NCBI GenBank assembly: GCA_018609045.1
Contig: JABAYK010000009.1
Coordinates: 57,006 to 121,005, forward strand
DNA length: 64,000 nucleotides
DNA from: Flavobacteriales bacterium
GTDB taxonomy: Bacteria; Bacteroidota; Bacteroidia; Flavobacteriales_G; Salibacteraceae
Direction of reading: 5' to 3'
How positions within the stretch are numbered: position 1 is the first letter of the stretch; each line of letters starts with the position of its first letter. The notes below the pieces were generated by a model. It saw only the letters and a program-made list of their open reading frames with translations. It made no database searches and was not told where the DNA came from. Of this stretch, positions 17,317-44,228 are shown in pieces. The position numbers and the translations under genes are program-made.

Positions 17317-17998
17317 TTGAGCAGCAAGCAAGAAATATTAAAATCTAAAATTGACCCTAAAAAAGTGCCCAATCACATTGCCATAATTATGGATGGAAAT
17401 GGTAGATGGGCAAAAAGCCAAGGGAAAGATAGAATTTTTGGTCATCAAAATGCAATTAATGCTGTCACCGAGTCTGTTGAAGGTTGTGCTGAAATTGGAG
17501 TTAAATTTTTAACCCTTTATGCTTTTTCTACAGAAAATTGGAACAGACCAAAACCAGAAGTTACTGCCTTGATGGAATTGTTAATTTCTACAATTCATCA
17601 AGAAATTGAAACACTAAATAAAAACAACATACGTTTACAAGCTATCGGAGATTTAAAAAGCATTAAGTTATAGCGCTAAGTGGGAGATTTTAGAAGCCAT
17701 AAAAAACATAATGGTTGATGGCAAAAACAACCAAGTAAAACCCGAAGATGTAAATGAGGATTTATTTAGAAACTATTTATCTACAAAGAATATTCCTGAC
17801 CCTGAATTAATGATTAGAACTTCAGGAGAATACAGAATTAGTAACTTTTTACTTTGGCAACTTGCTTATGCCGAATTAAAGTTTTTAGAAAAATTTTGGC
17901 CCGATTTCAATAGAGAAGATTTATTTAATGCAGTGATTGAGTTTCAAGGCCGCGAAAGAAGGTTCGGAAAAATTAGCGAACAATTAACCCAACAATGA
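17317..17998 (+). pseudogene. uppS: undecaprenyl-diphosphate synthase (UppS) disrupted by internal deletion plus frameshift
   Basis: The N-terminal part (17317..17673) carries [13 protein letters not shown] and [14 protein letters not shown]. The C-terminal part, in another frame and open from 17657 (track 17711..17998), carries LSYSAKWEI...IRTSGEYRISNFLLWQLAYAEL...RERRFG. Frames differ by +1. About 25 aa normally found between IGDL.. and ..LSYG appear to be missing. Confidence 0.75.
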
Positions 17999-34147: not shown

Positions 34148-35829
34148 GCGTTGCTGATTGGATTGTAATGTTATCTACCCTATTTGGCATTGTGGCTTAT
34201 GGGGTTTGGAAAACCAGAAAAAGCACTGATATTCATGGTTATTTGCGTGGTGGAAATACCATGGGTTGGGCTGTAATTGGTTTATCGGTAATGGCAACTC
34301 AGGCAAGTGCAATTACGTTTATTTCTGCACCTGGGCAGGCTTACGAAAACGGAATGGCATTCGTACAAAACTATTTTGGTTTGCCATTGGCACTCATTAT
34401 TGTATCGGCTGTATTTATTCCAATTTACTACAGACTTAACGTATTTACAGCGTATGAATATCTGGAAAAAAGATTTGATTTAAACACTCGCCTTTTAGCC
34501 GCTTTCTTGTTTTTGGTGCAACGTGGTTTAGCAGCCGGAATAACAATTTATGCTCCTGCTATTATCTTATCTGCGGCATTGGGATGGAACTTAACTTTCA
34601 CCATTTTATTCGTAGGCTTTTTGGTAATTATTTACACGGTTTCTGGAGGCACCAAAGCAGTTAGCTTAACCCAAAAATGGCAAATGGGCGTTATTATGGC
34701 GGGAATGTTCATCGCGTTTTTCACCATTTTAAGCAAGTTTCCTGAGGGCGTTGGAATGACCGAGGGTTTGGAAATTGCAGGCGCTATGAACAGGCTAAAT
34801 ATTGTTGATTTCTCATTCGATTTAGATGTGCGCTATACATTTTGGAGCGGTATTACAGGAGGCTTGTTTTTAGCCCTTTCTTATTTCGGCACAGACCAAT
34901 CTCAAGTGCAACGCTATTTAGGCGGCAAATCGGTTAAAGAAAGCAGACTAGGCTTAATGTTTAACGCCTTGCTAAAAATACCTATGCAGTTTTTTATCCT
35001 GTTATGCGGAATAATGGTATTTGTGTTTTTTCAGTTTCAGCAACATCAAGTTTTGTTTGACCAAGCCTCTGTAAACCTAATTCAAAACTCAGAATATGCT
35101 GAAGAATTTCAAAAAGTAGAGGATAAACATCAGGCAAACTATGTAGAAAAGCAAAATGCTATACAAGGATATTTATCTGCAAAAGAAGGAGATAAAGAAT
35201 ACGCAAAAAGTGAATTACTCAAATATGACGATAAAGAAAAAGAAATAAGAAACGAGGCTAAGGATGTTGTTAGAAAGGCTTTTCCGGGTAACGATGCCAA
35301 AGACTCTGACTATGTATTCCTATCGTTCATATTAAACTATTTGCCAAAAGGATTGGTGGGATTGCTGTTGGCTGTGATTATTTCGGCAGCTATGTCGTCT
35401 ACTTCAGGAGAGCTTAATGCATTGGGCACCACCACCATGATTGACTTTTACAAACGGTTACTCAAGAAAAATGGCTCAGAAAGGTATTATGTAAATGCTT
35501 CTAAAATTATTACAGCAATTTGGGGTTTTATAGCAATAGGATTCGCTTTGGTGGCTAATTTATTAGAAAACCTAATAGAGGCCGTAAACATTTTAGGCTC
35601 ATTATTTTACGGAACTATTTTAGGGATATTTATTGTAGCTTTTTTCTTAAAGCGAGTTGGAGCCTTTGCAGTTTTTTACGCTGCAATTGTTGCTGAACTT
35701 TTGGTAATTGGAGTCTTTTTCTTTTACTCAGATGTTATTGCTTATTTATGGCTAAACGTAATAGGTTGTTTTTTGGTAATCCTTCTTTCTACTCTTATCA
35801 ATAATCTTAGGAGTTTTATTAGATCTTAG
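34144..35829 (+). CDS. sodium:solute symporter (SSS family)
   Basis: Track ORF 34123..35829. ATG 34144 gives MSVADWIVMLSTLFGIVAYGVWKTRKS, typical of the SSS family. About 13 TM segments and a GGTKAV-type motif (YTVSGGTKAVSLTQKWQ). Confidence 0.85.
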   Translation: MSVADWIVMLSTLFGIVAYGVWKTRKSTDIHGYLRGGNTMGWAVIGLSVMATQASAITFISAPGQAYENGMAFVQNYFGLPLALIIVSAVFIPIYYRLNVFTAYEYLEKRFDLNTRLLAAFLFLVQRGLAAGITIYAPAIILSAALGWNLTFTILFVGFLVIIYTVSGGTKAVSLTQKWQMGVIMAGMFIAFFTILSKFPEGVGMTEGLEIAGAMNRLNIVDFSFDLDVRYTFWSGITGGLFLALSYFGTDQSQVQRYLGGKSVKESRLGLMFNALLKIPMQFFILLCGIMVFVFFQFQQHQVLFDQASVNLIQNSEYAEEFQKVEDKHQANYVEKQNAIQGYLSAKEGDKEYAKSELLKYDDKEKEIRNEAKDVVRKAFPGNDAKDSDYVFLSFILNYLPKGLVGLLLAVIISAAMSSTSGELNALGTTTMIDFYKRLLKKNGSERYYVNASKIITAIWGFIAIGFALVANLLENLIEAVNILGSLFYGTILGIFIVAFFLKRVGAFAVFYAAIVAELLVIGVFFFYSDVIAYLWLNVIGCFLVILLSTLINNLRSFIRS

Positions 35830-36688
35830 TGCTCCACTCTTTCATCAAATAATCAATTTCATCTTTTACCTCATTTTGCTGAAAAGCATTTAAGTACCTA
35901 TCTTTTTGCAAAACCATTTTGGCCTTTTCCATTTCCTTAACTGCCTTATCAAAATTGTTTGATTTAGCGTAAAATTTGGCTAACCAAAAATAACCTTCCC
36001 AATTTCTTGGGTCTTGTTCAACTACTAATCTTAACCAATTTTCAGGCTCTTGGCTATCAATATTTGCTTCAATAGAATACTTTGAGGCTAAAAGGAACTT
36101 TTTGGTTTCTTTTTTATTTGCCTTACTTAAGTCTTTTACCATTTTATCATAAAAATCATCATCATTAATTCCAATGGTCAAAAAGAAGGTTTGATCACCT
36201 AAAACAAAGGTTACTGCACTGTAATTCAATCCGCCTTGATTTGGCATTACCATAAACGATTGTCCTTGAACTCTACATTCAAACTCAGGAAGCCTTTCAA
36301 GTGGGAATGAAAATACTTTTATACCTTCTTCAGCGCGCAATTCATCCTCATTTAAATCATTTGGTAAGTCTTCAGGCTCAAGAACCAAATAAACTTGATC
36401 TTCTAACATTTTGAAACCTCCTATATAATTCCCTTTTGGCAAATTCATTTCACTGAAGCTCATGTCTTTATTGGTTCTAACAATAAAATAGGTTCTTCCT
36501 CCAGGGTAATATGCTTTATCTGCTTGTAAAATTGTTTCAATCGGCTCTTCAATCGAAATAGCCTTGAAGGTAAATTCTACTTCGCCTGTGCCAACTCTTT
36601 GAAAAACCGTAAATGATGGATTTGAAGTTGGAATTTGAGCAAAAACTAAACTTGGAATTAAAGCTAAAAGAAACAATATTTTTTTCAT
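35819..36688 (-). CDS. secreted/lipoprotein-like protein, possible DUF2911-like beta domain plus C-terminal TPR; last gene of the MNIO operon
   Basis: The track ORF extends to 36709. ATG 36688 gives MKKILFLLALIPSLVFAQ, a signal peptide. C-terminal TPR-like helix pair (WEGYFWLAKFYAKSNNFDKAVKEMEKA). Same strand as the DUF2063 gene, 39 nt downstream of it. Confidence 0.55.
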   Translation of the reverse strand: MKKILFLLALIPSLVFAQIPTSNPSFTVFQRVGTGEVEFTFKAISIEEPIETILQADKAYYPGGRTYFIVRTNKDMSFSEMNLPKGNYIGGFKMLEDQVYLVLEPEDLPNDLNEDELRAEEGIKVFSFPLERLPEFECRVQGQSFMVMPNQGGLNYSAVTFVLGDQTFFLTIGINDDDFYDKMVKDLSKANKKETKKFLLASKYSIEANIDSQEPENWLRLVVEQDPRNWEGYFWLAKFYAKSNNFDKAVKEMEKAKMVLQKDRYLNAFQQNEVKDEIDYLMKEWSTKI

Positions 36689-36727
36689 AACTAATTTTTG
36701 TGCGGGCAAATCTAATGATTTGAGACT

Positions 36728-37480
36728 CTATTTGGATGCTTCAAAAAGAATTCCTTTGTGAGAAAGTTGGTTAAAAAATGTTAGAACTTGTTTTTGTAAG
36801 TTTTCAGATTGAGCCTCGTTATTTTGTTGAGTTAATATCTCCAAGAATTCACCTAAAGTTAAATTTTCAGTTTGCAGTAGAAATTGTATTACGCCTAAAC
36901 CAAATTTTGAAACAGCCATAAAATGTACTTTAAAATCAGAAACTCCTCTGTAAATTACCATTGGGTATTCAGCTTTTTGACTCAACCATTCTTCTGGTAA
37001 GAATTTATGATAGGGATAATTTAAATTGATGCTTTTTAAGTAGGGATTTAATCGTAAGCTACTTATGGCATTTCCTTGAAAAGGCATTAACCCTTCAGTA
37101 GAAGTATCTTTTTGGGTGTGAACTTCTATTTCTAACCATTCGAAGTAGAGTAATTCTGATAAATAAGATGGGTTTAAATCAACCTGATTTGAGGTTTTAA
37201 ACCAATTGCAAAACTCTAAAGGCAGTTTCCAAACTTGAGGTGTTTTACAATTATGACTATTAAAAAACTCATTCACCAAAGCTTTAAAACTTTCAATTCC
37301 TATAGCTTTTTGAGCGATAGGAAACGCCTGTTGCATTATACCCAATACAACATAAAAAACCAGTCTGCGGTATTGAAAAACATGTTGTGGGTTTGATAAA
37401 ATTAAATCTTGCTTTTCTCCAGTACGTGAATATTGGGCTAGTTTACTTTGTTGGTTTATGGTTTCTGGTTTAAGCATCAA
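36728..37480 (-). CDS. DUF2063-family RiPP maturation partner protein (HvfC/BufC/MbnC-like)
   Basis: 250 aa. N-terminal DUF2063-like pattern (FQYRRLVFYVVLGIMQQAFPIAQKAIGIESFKALVNEFF). The start overlaps the DUF692 gene end by 11 nt. Confidence 0.75.
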   Translation of the reverse strand: MMLKPETINQQSKLAQYSRTGEKQDLILSNPQHVFQYRRLVFYVVLGIMQQAFPIAQKAIGIESFKALVNEFFNSHNCKTPQVWKLPLEFCNWFKTSNQVDLNPSYLSELLYFEWLEIEVHTQKDTSTEGLMPFQGNAISSLRLNPYLKSINLNYPYHKFLPEEWLSQKAEYPMVIYRGVSDFKVHFMAVSKFGLGVIQFLLQTENLTLGEFLEILTQQNNEAQSENLQKQVLTFFNQLSHKGILFEASK

Positions 37481-38291
37481 CTTCCTCTTGGTTTGTAATT
37501 TTGTGAAGTTGTGTTAACTCTCTTTTTAACTCATTTATTTCAGGGAAATTAAAATCGCGCTCTAACAAAACAGGTGAATTATTAAGCTTTGGATAAACCC
37601 ATTTTAAAAGTTCATAAACTGGGTCAATTATAGCTTCGCCATGCGTGTCTATAATTAAATCATCAGCTACTTTTTCATGACCAGCCATGTGAATATAACT
37701 TACTTTTTCGAGTGGTAAATTATTGATAAAATCTTTGGTATTGTAACCATGATTAAAGGCATTTACATAAATATTATTTACATCTAAAAGTAAATTACAA
37801 TTTGATTTATTTACGATTTCAGAAATAAATTCATGCTCCTTCATTTCTGCTGCAACTGCAGTGTAGTAGGATACATTTTCGATTGCCAAAGGCATTTCTA
37901 AATAATCTTGCACTACTTTAATGCGCTCAGCGATATGGATAACAGCATCTTGCGTAAACGGAATTGGCAATAAATCGTATAAATGTGCATTGTCGCACTT
38001 GCTGTAAGACAAATGCTCAGAGTAAATTTTTATATCGTATTGTTTGATGAAGGCTTTGATCTTTTTTAAGAAATCAAAATCTAATTCATCTGGACTTCCA
38101 ATACTTAGAGATAAGCCATGTAACGATATAGGGTATTTTTCTGCGGCTTCATCTAGTTTGGCTCGCCAGTACCCGCCCATATCAATCCAGTTTTCAGGAG
38201 CCAATTCAATAAAATTTGGCGAAGGATTTACCATGCCAATAATTTCATCGGCAATATCTCTTCTAAATCCTATTCCAACTCCTTTTACCAT
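37470..38291 (-). CDS. DUF692 / MNIO-family (MbnB/BufB/HvfB-like) RiPP peptide maturase
   Basis: ATG 38291 gives MVKGVGIGFRRDIADEI. The track start at 38306 lies inside the upstream hairpin. DUF692 hallmarks: FIELAPENW, LHGLSLSIGS, YSEHLSY, LAIENVSYY, LLLDVNNIYVNAFNHGY, YIHMAGH. Confidence 0.85.
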   Translation of the reverse strand: MVKGVGIGFRRDIADEIIGMVNPSPNFIELAPENWIDMGGYWRAKLDEAAEKYPISLHGLSLSIGSPDELDFDFLKKIKAFIKQYDIKIYSEHLSYSKCDNAHLYDLLPIPFTQDAVIHIAERIKVVQDYLEMPLAIENVSYYTAVAAEMKEHEFISEIVNKSNCNLLLDVNNIYVNAFNHGYNTKDFINNLPLEKVSYIHMAGHEKVADDLIIDTHGEAIIDPVYELLKWVYPKLNNSPVLLERDFNFPEINELKRELTQLHKITNQEEVDA

Positions 38292-38325
38292 AAATAAAAA
38301 CGTCATTCTAAATTAAGAATGACGT
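38292..38325 (-). terminator. hairpin + U-tract (partial terminator/attenuator) between precursor and maturase genes
   Basis: 10-bp perfect stem acgtcattct/agaatgacgt (38300-38309 / 38316-38325). On the minus-strand transcript it is followed by UUUUUAUUU and then the maturase ATG. Confidence 0.5.
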
Positions 38326-38359
38326 GTAAATTTAAATTGATTTTATGTTGTTCTGTGGA

Positions 38360-38758
38360 TTAATTTCCACATTTACCTTCACCACATTTATGCTCCCCAG
38401 TTTTTCCTTCGGCTTTTGGGGTTGCTTTTTCTCCTTCTGCTTTTTTCTCTTCACCACATTTACCTTCACCACATTTGTGCTCGCCAGTTTTCTCAGCAGC
38501 TTTCGTTTCGGCTTTTTCTCCTTCTGCTTTTTTCTTTCCCTCTCCGCAAGTTCCTTCACCGCATTTCAACTCTATAGTTGCATTGATAAAAGCTGGAGAG
38601 TTTAAATTGGCTTCTAGAATATTGCTTCTTAAATCAGAACCAGTTCCTAAATCTTCGGTATTAAATAAGTTTTCAGCGTTAGCATCTACACTTAAAAGTG
38701 ATAAAGAGCTTAACATAATTGTTCCAGCAGCAAGATTTTTTAGTTTGTTGGTTTTCAT
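38360..38758 (-). CDS. HvfA-like RiPP precursor: Sec-signal peptide plus three KCGEG(K/T)CG motifs (predicted metallophore)
   Basis: 132 aa. Signal peptide MKTNKLKNLAAGTIMLSSLSLLSVDANA. C-terminal Lys/Glu/Gly-rich core has Cys only at 66, 71, 96, 101, 125 and 130, always as K-C-G or x-C-G within CGEG(T/K)CG. An 87-nt (29-codon) tandem duplication is present (38367-38405 vs 38454-38492). It lies immediately upstream of the DUF692/DUF2063 genes. Confidence 0.75.
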   Translation of the reverse strand: MKTNKLKNLAAGTIMLSSLSLLSVDANAENLFNTEDLGTGSDLRSNILEANLNSPAFINATIELKCGEGTCGEGKKKAEGEKAETKAAEKTGEHKCGEGKCGEEKKAEGEKATPKAEGKTGEHKCGEGKCGN

Positions 38759-38844
38759 GACATTTTTAGATTTTGAGTTAATTTCAATCGAATGTAAGTA
38801 ACCTTATTTCCTAATAGTGTCACAATTTATACAAATTCAACTAA

Positions 38845-40704
38845 TTAAGGCTGATACAGCTCTGCCAGCTCTAACCATCGCATCGATTTTTCATCAATTT
38901 CCTCGGTGAGTTTCCCTAATTCTTTCACCTTATTTTGAAGGTCTTCAACTGAAAGTTCACCCGACGAAATTTCTTGATTTAACTTTTCTTTTTGTTCCTC
39001 CATTTTAGGCACAAGTTTATCAAGCTCTTCAAATTCAAGTTTTTCTTTATAACTCAATTTGTTTTTTTCTTGGGCTTTTGGATTTTCTTTAGTCTCTTTT
39101 TCTTGTTTCGGAGGAGCCACACTTTTCAATTGTTTTTTTGAAGCTCTGTACTCTGTGTATTTTCCTACATAATCTTTTATGGTAGCATCACCTTCAAAAA
39201 TAAAAGTATGGTCAACCACTTTATCTAACAAATACCTATCGTGGGTAATTAGCAAAACACAACCATCAAAGTTTTTAAGGTAGTCTTCTAAAATATTTAA
39301 GGTTAAAATATCTAAATCATTAGTAGGCTCATCTAAAATTAAAAAGTTTGGATTCCCCATTAAAACAGAAACCAAATACAACCTTCTTCTCTCTCCTCCA
39401 CTTAAAGTGGATGTTTTTTTGTGCTGGTCTTTTCTAGTAAACAAAAACTTTTCTAGCAAACGGGCAGCATCAACCACTTTGCCTTCTTTCTCTTCAATTA
39501 CCTCTGCTATTTCGGTTAGAACTTCTAAAACCCTTTGGTCTTTTTTCATTTCTAAACCTTTCTGCTCGTAAACACCAATTTTTACGGTTTCGCCAATTAC
39601 TACTTTGCCTGTATCAGGTTGTAATCTTTCTAAAATTATGTTTACCAAGGTTGTTTTGCCAGCCCCGTTTTTCCCTGCAATTCCAACTTTATCGCCTTTT
39701 AAAAATTTGTAGTTAAAGTTTTTAAACAAGGTTTTGTCTTCGAAGCTTTTACCCACATTGTGTAGCTCTAAAATTTTATTACCAAGCCTATCACTTTTAA
39801 AATCAATAGCAATTTCACTTTTGTCAATTCGCTTTGATGCGTCTTTTTTTACATCGTCAAAAGCGTCAACACGGGCTTTGCTTTTTGTTGTTCTTGCTTT
39901 GGGTTGCCTTCTTATCCAATCTAACTCTTTTCGGAAAACATTTTTAGCTTTTTCTATAGATGTTTCTTCGTTAGAAATGCGTTCAGACTTTTTGGTAAGG
40001 TAATAGGTGAAATTGCCATCGTAGCTATACAATTGCTCGTTGTCAATTTCTAGAATATGCTCACAAACATTTTCTAAAAAATACCTATCATGAGTTACCA
40101 TCAAAATACTTTGGTTGGCACCAGATAAGTATTGCTCTAGCCATTCAACCATATCTAAATCGAGGTGGTTGGTAGGCTCATCAAGAATTATTAAATCGGG
40201 ATTGGCAAAAATTAATCCTGCCAAAGCAATTCTTTTTTGCTCACCTCCAGATAGTTTATCGGCTAATCTATTGACTCTAGTAAGGTTTAAAGCGCCTAAA
40301 ATTGAAGTAACTTTAGATTCGGCGTCCCAAAGTTGGTGTTGCTCCATTAAGGGCAAAAGCTTCTCTATGTTTTCATAATTATTTTCTTCAATGGCATTTT
40401 CGTACTGCATTAAAACTTGCAGTTTGGGGTCATTTGAATGAAGAATATTCTCTAAAATAGTTTTGGTTGGGTCTATAATTGGGCTTTGCTCCAAATAACC
40501 TACAGTAATGCCATTTCTAACAGTAACATTGCCAGAATCAGGCGGTTCTAAACCAGCAATAATTTTAAGCAAGCTAGATTTTCCTGTTCCATTTTTGGCA
40601 ACTAAAGCTGTTTTTTGTCCTTTGTGAATACCAAAAGAAATATCTCCAAAAAGCAAACGCTCACCGTACCTTTTGCTCACCAACTCAACCGAAAGTAAAT
40701 TCAT
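38845..40704 (-). CDS. ABC-F family ATPase (Uup-like, with C-terminal coiled coil)
   Basis: 619 aa. Two ABC cassettes (GKTALVAKNGTGKSS / LSGGEQKRIALA; GIAGKNGAGKTT / LSGGERRRLYL). No TM segments. Lys/Glu-rich C-terminal coiled coil. Confidence 0.85.
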   Translation of the reverse strand: MNLLSVELVSKRYGERLLFGDISFGIHKGQKTALVAKNGTGKSSLLKIIAGLEPPDSGNVTVRNGITVGYLEQSPIIDPTKTILENILHSNDPKLQVLMQYENAIEENNYENIEKLLPLMEQHQLWDAESKVTSILGALNLTRVNRLADKLSGGEQKRIALAGLIFANPDLIILDEPTNHLDLDMVEWLEQYLSGANQSILMVTHDRYFLENVCEHILEIDNEQLYSYDGNFTYYLTKKSERISNEETSIEKAKNVFRKELDWIRRQPKARTTKSKARVDAFDDVKKDASKRIDKSEIAIDFKSDRLGNKILELHNVGKSFEDKTLFKNFNYKFLKGDKVGIAGKNGAGKTTLVNIILERLQPDTGKVVIGETVKIGVYEQKGLEMKKDQRVLEVLTEIAEVIEEKEGKVVDAARLLEKFLFTRKDQHKKTSTLSGGERRRLYLVSVLMGNPNFLILDEPTNDLDILTLNILEDYLKNFDGCVLLITHDRYLLDKVVDHTFIFEGDATIKDYVGKYTEYRASKKQLKSVAPPKQEKETKENPKAQEKNKLSYKEKLEFEELDKLVPKMEEQKEKLNQEISSGELSVEDLQNKVKELGKLTEEIDEKSMRWLELAELYQP

Positions 40705-42890: not shown

Positions 42891-44228
42891 ATGAAGATAT
42901 TTATTGTTGAAGATGATACTTGGTAAGGCGAAATTTTAGAATACCATGTTTCTTTAAATCCTGATTATGAAGTTGAAAGATTTGAAACTGGGAAAGCCGT
43001 TTTGGCCGCATTGCACAAAAAGCCCGATGTGGTAACTTTAGATTACTCGTTACCTGACCTTTCTTGCGAAAAGCTTATCAAAGAGGTTAAAAATTTCAAT
43101 CCTGAAATTCCAATAATAATTGTTTCAGGGCAAGAAGATGTTTTTACAGCGGTAAACCTGCTAAAAGAAGGAATTTATGATTAAATAGTTAAAGATGATG
43201 ACACCAAAGACCGGTTGTGGGTAAATTTAAAAAACTTTAAAGAAAAGGCTAATCTTAAGCAGGAACTAAACTCATTAAGAGAAGAAGTCCAAGGAAAATA
43301 CGATTTCTTTAATATTTTAAAAGGGAATAGCAGCCCTATGCAGAGGATATTTAAATTGATGGAAAAATCTGCAAAAACTAACATAACAGTAAGTATTACA
43401 GGCGAAACTGGCACAGGAAAAGAGTTGGTTGCTAAGGCAATTCATTACAACTCACCCCGAAAGAAAAAGCCATTGGTTGCGGTAAATATTTCGGCCATAC
43501 CAAATGAACTAATTGAAAGTGAATTATTTGGGCACGAAAAAGGCGCTTTTACAGGTGCCAATGCCAGGCGAATTGGGAAATTTGAAGAAGCCAATAATGG
43601 AACTATTTTTCTAGATGAAATAAGAGAAATGGACATCAATATGCAAGCCAAATTATTACGTGTTTTGCAAGAAAGAGAAGTTACAAGAGTTGGTGGCAAC
43701 ACAAGTGTAAAAGTAGATGTTAGGGTTATTGAAGCAACCCACCGAAACTTATCTGATGAAGTTAAAAAAGGTAATTTTAGAGAAGATTTATTTTACCGAT
43801 TACTTGGTTTTCCGATAGAGTTACCACCACTGCGCGAAAGAGATAATGATGTACTATTATTGGCAAAATTCTTTTTAGATGATTTTGCCAAAGAAAATAA
43901 ATTGGGTAAAATTTCCTTCTCTGCCGAAGCAAAAGAAAAATTAAAAAGGTACCCATTTCCCGGTAATGTAAGAGAGTTAAAAGCGGTTATGGATTTAACC
44001 GTAGTAATGAGTTCAGATGGCATAATTCAAGATGAAGATATTTCTTTTAGGGCTTCAAATGCGGTAAGTGACTTTTTAACTGAGGAAATGACTTTAAAAG
44101 AATACAACAACAGAATAATAAAAAACTTTTTAAAGCGATATGACAATAATGTTCTGAAGGTTGCAGATAAATTAGATATAGGCAAATCAACTATATACCG
44201 GATGATTCAGGAGGAAAAAGAAAAATGA
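42891..44228 (+). pseudogene. sigma-54-dependent response regulator (NtrC family) interrupted by two in-frame TAA codons
   Basis: A single reading frame from ATG 42891 to TGA 44226-44228, with TAA at 42924-42926 and 43182-43184. Receiver domain MKIFIVEDDTW*GEILEYH...VVTLDYSLPD...GIYD*IVKDDD. AAA+ domain GETGTGKE, ESELFGHEKGAFTGA, GTIFLDEI. C-terminal HTH (KSTIYRMI). No frameshifts. Confidence 0.8.

Follow-up and report, generated by a model that had tools for sequence, protein, structure and literature searches.

We identified an open reading frame that very probably encodes an HvfA-like precursor of an oxazolin/captophorin-type RiPP metallophore of the Lys-Cys (EGKCG) group, located in a minimal three-gene hvfABC operon of a Bacteroidota genome (Table 1). 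The precursor would be modified by HvfBC, exported by Sec and bind Cu(I) in the periplasm. Sequence analysis directly shows which genes and motifs are present, the synteny with relatives, the conserved residues of the enzymes and the signal-peptide-like features of the precursor. By the window we mean the whole 64-kb stretch of DNA that was analysed. The system as such has already been described, and the precursor studied here is an uncharacterised Bacteroidota-type member of it; novelty is limited to clade-level variations. We found no experimental work on any Bacteroidota HvfA member in the literature.

Table 1. Features of the hvfABC region in window coordinates.
Feature	Position	Strand	Basis and remarks
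hvfA-like precursor gene, 132 aa plus stop	38360..38758	-	ORF; NCBIfam NF050137; homologues; third-position substitutions
Residues 1-28, Sec-type signal peptide, predicted cleavage ANA|EN	38675..38758	-	Sequence features and aligned AxA; putative
Residues 29-50, conserved N-box ENLFNTEDLGTGSDLRSNILEA, candidate HvfC recognition/docking element	38609..38674	-	Alignment, AlphaFold2; putative function
Residues 51-62, spacer of variable length and sequence	38573..38608	-	Homologue alignment
Cys pair 1, KCGEGTCG (C66, C71)	38543..38566	-	
Cys pair 2, KCGEGKCG (C96, C101)	38453..38476	-	
Cys pair 3, KCGEGKCG (C125, C130), one residue before the C-terminus	38366..38389	-	
87-nt tandem repeat, 1.9 copies; both K/E/A-rich linkers and pairs 2 and 3	38367..38535	.	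Tandem Repeats Finder (TRF), codon comparison
10-bp perfect hairpin then TTTTTATTTAT (T-run), between precursor and maturase genes, terminator/attenuator-like	38290..38325	-	Terminator scan, folding; putative function
hvfB, MNIO (DUF692) peptide maturase	37470..38306	-	NF003818, PF05114; start perhaps at the second ATG, 38291
hvfC, DUF2063/PME1 partner	36728..37480	-	Pfam HvfC_N and HvfC_C; overlaps hvfB by 8-11 nt

The precursor and its reading frame

The predicted protein begins MKTNKLKNLAAGTIMLSSLSLLSVDANAENLF and ends KCGEGKCGN. Translation confirmed a central claim of the initial annotation, that all six cysteines (positions 66, 71, 96, 101, 125 and 130) belong to paired CGEG(K/T)CG motifs, here KCGEGTCG, KCGEGKCG and KCGEGKCG. 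The pattern CGxxxCG occurs three times in the six frames of the window, every time within this gene. The N-terminus has a Lys-rich n-region, a hydrophobic stretch at residues 9-24 and A-N-A at -3/-1, and inspection of it revealed neither a lipobox Cys nor twin Arg residues. An AxA site ahead of a conserved sequence box recurs among aligned homologues. The predicted signal peptide agrees with the earlier proposal that a Sec-type signal replaces a classical leader, which is a described trait of HvfA-family precursors (PMC11252979, PMC12452194).

It is extremely improbable that the hvfA frame is spurious and that the real gene is one of three overlapping frames (38332..38559 on the minus strand, 38345..38605 or 38475..38801 on the plus strand) that the initial annotation had listed as competitors. 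None of the three is interrupted by a stop in the window, and an antisense frame over hvfA runs on without one for 131 codons, but in distant relatives that antisense stretch is reduced to 55-103 codons. Comparison with a sister lineage (L005, 95% amino acid identity) places 2, 2 and 20 substitutions at positions 1, 2 and 3 of the hvfA codons, a pattern (20/24 at the third position) that supports the hvfA frame, and the sole length difference is an in-frame 12-nt insertion encoding EMKK. In addition, the 290 protein homologues and the curated family match described below belong to this frame. The antisense frames are open because the purine-rich, GAA/AAA-rich composition of the coding strand by itself leaves the reverse complement free of stops. 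Judged from the sequence comparisons, the hvfA frame is the coding one.

AlphaFold2 (AF2) modeling of the precursor with 88 homologues gave a mean pLDDT of 52 and a pTM of 0.19. A helix at residues 40-52 is the only region to reach a pLDDT of 64-76, and the remainder is predicted to be disordered. A disordered core would fit the requirement of the maturation enzymes for a flexible substrate.

Family assignment and homologues

The precursor matches NCBIfam NF050137 (‘KCGExKCG_twice’, HvfA family RiPP metallophore) over residues 93-131 with 28.4 bits against a cut-off of 19.5. Together with the enzyme matches reported below, this upholds the initial assignment to HvfA-family RiPP precursors. The HvfA equivalog model of the Haemophilus type, NF050188, aligns with the repeat region alone (19.7 bits, cut-off 95). 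As this score and that of the NCBIfam HvfC model are below their cut-offs, we conclude membership at the family level rather than orthology to the characterised proteins. The precursor has no Pfam match, and the DUF2282 domain and Cys-Lys motifs are absent from it. With three KCGEGxCG pairs, it shows the repeated EGKCG that defines HvfA, Buf_EGKCG and the Lys-Cys captophorins.

Homologue searches recovered 290 proteins, and the best 120 of the 290 are 105-165 amino acids long. These homologues contain one to six CGxxxCG motifs each (overlaps counted) and 3-9 cysteines, including single gains and losses of five residues. The initial annotation had called for the CG motifs to be compared across homologues, and they proved strongly conserved: 602/662 cysteines in the 120 homologues lie within KCG, about 99% have Gly as the next residue, and the terminal Cys pair is invariant across the family in the alignments. 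Its suspicion that Cys pairs might set this peptide apart from single EGKCG repeats did not hold, as the pair is the signature of the family, both in the KCGExKCG_twice model and in HvfA of nontypeable Haemophilus (NTHi), where AEGKCGEGKCG occurs three times. We also found no support for a His residue as an additional metal ligand: His immediately precedes only 87 of the 261 pairs (33%) in homologues, the position being elsewhere Ala, Leu, Gly or Ser.

The tandem repeat and its age

The initial annotation had derived all three Cys pairs from an 87-nt tandem duplication with a 29-codon period. Tandem Repeats Finder did detect a repeat of period 87 at 38367-38535 (84% matches, no indels), but this corresponds to residues ~75-131; the first pair lies outside and uses different codons. 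Since the repeat is limited to the linkers and pairs 2 and 3, the duplication alone does not generate all three pairs. Likewise, the 29-residue spacing applies from C96 to C125, whereas C66 and C96 are 30 residues apart. The near-identity of the 39-nt stretches at 38367-38405 and 38454-38492 was borne out, with 36/39 identical positions and three synonymous differences.

The proposal of a recent expansion with variable copy number fared well in its second part only. Copy number does vary across the family, as the homologue counts above show, but relatives at ~58% identity already have three pairs, which argues against recency. All seven members of the cluster defined at 90% identity contain three pairs, except one sequence that ends before the third; amino acid changes among them are confined to the linkers and the N-terminus, and a 12-nt linker indel separates variants. 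In a synonymous comparison, the DNA of KCGEGKCG motifs is 87.4% identical within genes and 83.7% identical between unrelated family genes. This gap is too small for the near-identity of motif DNA to say much about the age of the duplication, and we found recent duplication or concerted evolution of the motifs to be unsupported.

A conserved box after the signal peptide

A box with the FCB-group consensus NLFxYxDLGSGAELRSxLL (in general form NLFxxxDLGxGxxLRS) follows the signal peptide at window residues 29-48 and is found in 115/120 homologues. Among 88 aligned sequences, G38 and R44 are invariant and G40 is at least 90% conserved. The short helix predicted by AF2 at residues 40-52 belongs to this box. 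The form of the box is clade-specific (compared across L015-L094): the consensus above characterises Bacteroidota, Ignavibacteria and Calditrichota, and NPFxxxELSSGYxLA is the form in Gammaproteobacteria. The box of FonA from Fontimonas thermophila, SVFQASDLGAGYMVAS, is related to that of the window, ENLFNTEDLGTGSDLRS, whereas NTHi HvfA has a Cys-Cys disulfide region in its place. We found no discussion of the box in the literature on this family.

The initial annotation had proposed residues ~29-63 as a recognition sequence, and the conservation of the box makes this plausible. We suggest the box as a candidate docking or recognition element for HvfC, and it probably helps the precursor to engage HvfBC. 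However, the N regions of NTHi HvfA (PMC11252979) and FonA are helpful and not strictly needed for modification, which weakens the case for a recognition role. It is conceivable, if somewhat doubtful, that the FCB-group HvfA proteins form a distinct subfamily in which the box acts as a grip for HvfC, keeping the Sec-targeted precursor cytoplasmic until every Cys residue has been modified, with NPFxxxELSSGYxLA as the gammaproteobacterial counterpart. How RiPP precursors bearing signal peptides avoid premature export has been posed as an open question (PMC12452194). If the idea is correct, the minimal hvfABC operon, with neither DoxX nor a dedicated regulator, would be a clean test system for the escape from premature export.

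Neighbouring maturation enzymes and synteny

The hvfB gene starts ~54-68 nt downstream of hvfA on the same strand. Its product scores 387.9 bits against the HvfB equivalog model NF003818 (cut-off 360) and also matches Pfam PF05114 (MbnB_TglH_ChrH), whereas the BufB (273.1 bits, cut-off 310) and MbnB (59 against 325) models remain below their cut-offs. The hvfC product matches both Pfam domains, PF09836 (44.9 bits, threshold 27.2) and PF22106 (35.8 against 27), and scores 113.9 bits with the NCBIfam HvfC model, under the cut-off of 142. In comparisons with PDB sequences, HvfB is closest to 3BWW (3.6e-78) and otherwise only distantly related to 8HCI; HvfC has no match there. The window HvfB shares 45% identity with FonB and also with NTHi HvfB and, when aligned with them, retains Arg15/Arg16 (GIGFRRDI) and the Asp-Phe of LLERDFNFP. 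Gadgil et al. (PMC12668002) describe RR15/16 and Asp-Phe (D249/F250 in FonB) as the catalytic base and residues that fit EGKCG. The start of hvfB is ambiguous between 38306 and 38291: the first ATG, at 38306, sits in the 3' arm of the intergenic hairpin, and gene callers on related contigs take 38291 (273 aa).

The order precursor-MNIO-HvfC on one strand is kept in every genomic context checked, across phyla. Among 80 family loci from GTDB species genomes, an HvfB homologue occurs in 63, nearly always directly downstream of the precursor gene, and HvfC in 52. This synteny bears on the alternative that the precursor is an unmodified, secreted low-complexity protein rich in Cys, Lys and Glu that binds metal through free thiols, with the MNIO and DUF2063 proteins acting on another substrate. 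The remaining 17/80 loci, without an HvfB match within the DNA examined, would be compatible with such a protein, and in one public source the exact protein has no more specific name than ‘uncharacterized low-complexity protein’. Nevertheless, we consider this very unlikely given the gene order conserved across phyla, an MNIO that keeps the residues fitting EGKCG substrates, and three family members experimentally modified at exactly these cysteines.

Pfam searches of ten small ORFs and tblastn over the whole 64 kb identified no DoxX (HvfX) gene in the window. DoxX is reported to be a variable component of EGKCG clusters (PMC12452194), and its absence is thus compatible with family membership. 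Genes for an ECF sigma factor or a zinc-finger anti-sigma factor are likewise absent from the whole window. A set of 94 loci, in which a few lineages are represented by repeat contigs, contains 18-20 with a sigma/anti-sigma pair and 26 with DoxX. Many FCB-group hvf clusters (L009 4012-4909, L010 4188-4981, L014 4071-4913 and ~15 more) have an ECF sigma gene upstream together with a gene for a protein of 80-92 amino acids with an HLLxCxxCRRF motif, resembling a zinc-finger anti-sigma factor. Sigma/anti-sigma genes have been reported for Buf1 clusters and not for EGKCG clusters (PMC12452194).

A gene for a secreted TPR-containing protein (35819-36688, minus strand) follows hvfC after 39 nt without an intervening terminator, and the two genes may be co-transcribed. 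We rejected the TPR protein as a conserved fourth member of the operon, as it occurs only in the same and sister lineages, other genes taking this position in distant relatives.

The intergenic hairpin and sequence composition

The hairpin between hvfA and hvfB has a minimum free energy of -15.8 kcal/mol (z -4.3). Of 66 family loci, roughly half have a hairpin of unrelated sequence at the same position; z is below -2 in 34 of them, and 27 have a T-rich tail (loci with such hairpins include L009, L010, L012, L020, L022, L073 and L089). The recurrence of the structure suggests partial termination that may set the ratio of precursor to enzymes, with the precursor in excess. Partial termination that yields more precursor than enzyme occurs in other RiPP operons. 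An Rfam scan of 35600-39200 at E values up to 1 gave no riboswitch or leader RNA match. The GC content of 32-36% has no compositional break and there is no sign of a foreign island.

Proposed pathway

The chemistry, localisation and metal binding proposed for the window precursor are based on homology to three characterised systems. The hairpin and T-run past the hvfA stop codon point to precursor synthesis in excess of the enzymes. In the cytoplasm, a complex of HvfB, a multi-iron MNIO oxidase, and its DUF2063 partner HvfC would engage the flexible peptide. By homology, HvfB is expected to oxidise all six paired Cys residues (three KCGEGxCG motifs) to 5-thiooxazole, each conversion lowering the mass by 4 Da. 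The modified peptide would then be exported by Sec and cleaved by signal peptidase I after Ala28. The resulting periplasmic product of ~104 residues, predicted to be largely disordered, may bind Cu(I) at about one ion per pair, about three in all, and would most likely buffer or sequester copper.

Even for the characterised members, both copper detoxification and copper acquisition are under discussion as the function (PMC11252979; Gadgil et al.). With the same chemistry, the product could alternatively scavenge copper as a chalkophore or bind a different metal, or a host protease could cut the Lys-rich linkers to release small units derived from KCGEGKCG. A chalkophore is an option that Manley et al. 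(PMC11252979) raised for oxazolin, and Gadgil et al. leave it open if the peptide matures as a single chain or as several shorter pieces. Consistent with scavenging, many marine metagenomes contain the organism, and copper can be in short supply in such environments; moreover, the window cluster is without the stress-type ECF sigma/anti-sigma pair of its relatives. However, in none of the genomic contexts examined does the cluster have a linked gene for a TonB-dependent receptor, an exporter or a protease, the precursor has no signal for secretion past the periplasm, and excess metal is reported to induce pathways of the 5-thiooxazole type (Gadgil et al.). We therefore regard these alternatives as improbable, and favour periplasmic buffering or sequestration of copper by an intact peptide.

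Occurrence and significance

The exact protein occurs in 111 blocks of a metagenome collection, and one member of its cluster comes from the Global Ocean Sampling. The named relatives are MAGs of Bacteroidota and Flavobacteriales. Together with the GC content of 32-36%, this points to a host that is probably an uncultured marine Bacteroidota bacterium, and probably an abundant one. A search of genome contigs with the family gave best loci that, among the matches listed, are ~41-47% identical. Given its occurrence in many metagenome assemblies, and thus the probable abundance of the organism, the peptide is a candidate for an ecologically relevant buffer of copper in the periplasm.

The locus reveals no new mechanism, and current NCBI family models would name all three genes. 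It extends the copper-binding RiPPs (oxazolin, fontiphorin and gonophorin) beyond the Pseudomonadota, on which all experiments to date have been done. The conserved N-box and minimal operon could help to test how maturases recognise their precursors.

Disrupted genes elsewhere in the window

The gene for a sigma54-dependent response regulator (42893-44228, plus strand) is interrupted by two in-frame TAA codons (DTW*GEIL, and GIYD*IVKDD at 43182-43184), each in place of a Tyr codon of the relatives. Three contigs of the same species (L001-L003) have only the first stop and L004 has both, whereas neither stop occurs in the sister lineage (L005 and L006), a distribution that suggests natural pseudogenisation in steps. 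The undecaprenyl-diphosphate synthase gene (uppS, 17317-17998, plus strand) is divided between two ORFs, 17317..17673 and 17711..17998, that are not in the same frame. Either the assembly contains an error here or this gene, which is normally essential, has undergone a frameshift.

Comparison with known systems

The closest characterised relatives belong to a class recently named captophorins by Gadgil et al. 2025 (PMC12668002), who reported copper binding, a role in copper stress and pathways often induced by excess heavy metal. The modification was first assigned as oxazolone/thioamide; two groups have since revised the assignment to 5-thiooxazole (PMC12668002 and a 2026 bioRxiv preprint), a chemistry demonstrated for NTHi HvfA, FonA and NgoA.

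NTHi HvfA (oxazolin, NTHI1441) was studied by Manley et al. 2024 (PMC11252979), who described a 24-residue Sec signal, a 20-residue N region and three AEGKCGEGKCG repeats. HvfBC modifies all six repeat cysteines, about one Cu(I) is bound per pair, and signal cleavage has been shown experimentally. The window precursor resembles it in the predicted Sec signal, short N region, three KCGEGKCG-type pairs and six paired cysteines, and in both genomes the precursor gene adjoins those of the MNIO HvfB and the DUF2063 partner HvfC. The N region of NTHi HvfA differs in its Cys38-Cys43 disulfide and the lack of an NLF..DLGxG box, and its pairs recur every ~16-17 residues instead of every 29-30. The NTHi operon includes DoxX (HvfX), which the window operon does not, and the hosts are Pseudomonadota and Bacteroidota, respectively.

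FonA (fontiphorin) shares with the window precursor a signal peptide (predicted in the latter), a related box, EGKCG pairs and a three-gene operon (fonABC) without DoxX. FonB has the same RR15/16 and D249-F250 residues as the window MNIO, and the FonA product carries 5-thiooxazoles. FonA differs in having seven cysteines, including a triple repeat, and shorter linkers. Its box ends in the gammaproteobacterial GY..A, whereas that of the window has GxELRSxLL, and FonC is only ~21% identical to the window HvfC.

The Buf_EGKCG family, or oxazolins, comprises ~2,000 proteins with Sec signal peptides, mostly from Pseudomonadota, as described by Leprevost and co-workers (Microb Genom 2025, PMC12452194). 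Like the window precursor with its predicted signal peptide, these proteins have signal peptides and two EGKCG motifs per repeat unit, and their gene clusters combine MNIO, DUF2063 and sometimes DoxX in various ways. Their repeats are 17 residues long and modelled by AF2 as a beta-helix, in contrast to the spacing of 29-30 residues, AF2-predicted disorder and FCB-group host found here.

More distantly, the bufferins Buf1 (DUF2282) and Buf2 and the methanobactin precursor MbnA share with the HvfA type the conversion of Cys into Cu-binding heterocycles by an MNIO and a partner protein. Bufferins also have Sec signal peptides and act in the periplasm, as proposed here for the window precursor, and they are set apart from the window system by the DUF2282 domain, the Cys-Lys motif and the BufB model, which the window MNIO matches only below cut-off. 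Methanobactin, with its classical leader peptide, secretion and oxazolone-thioamide groups, is unlike the window system.
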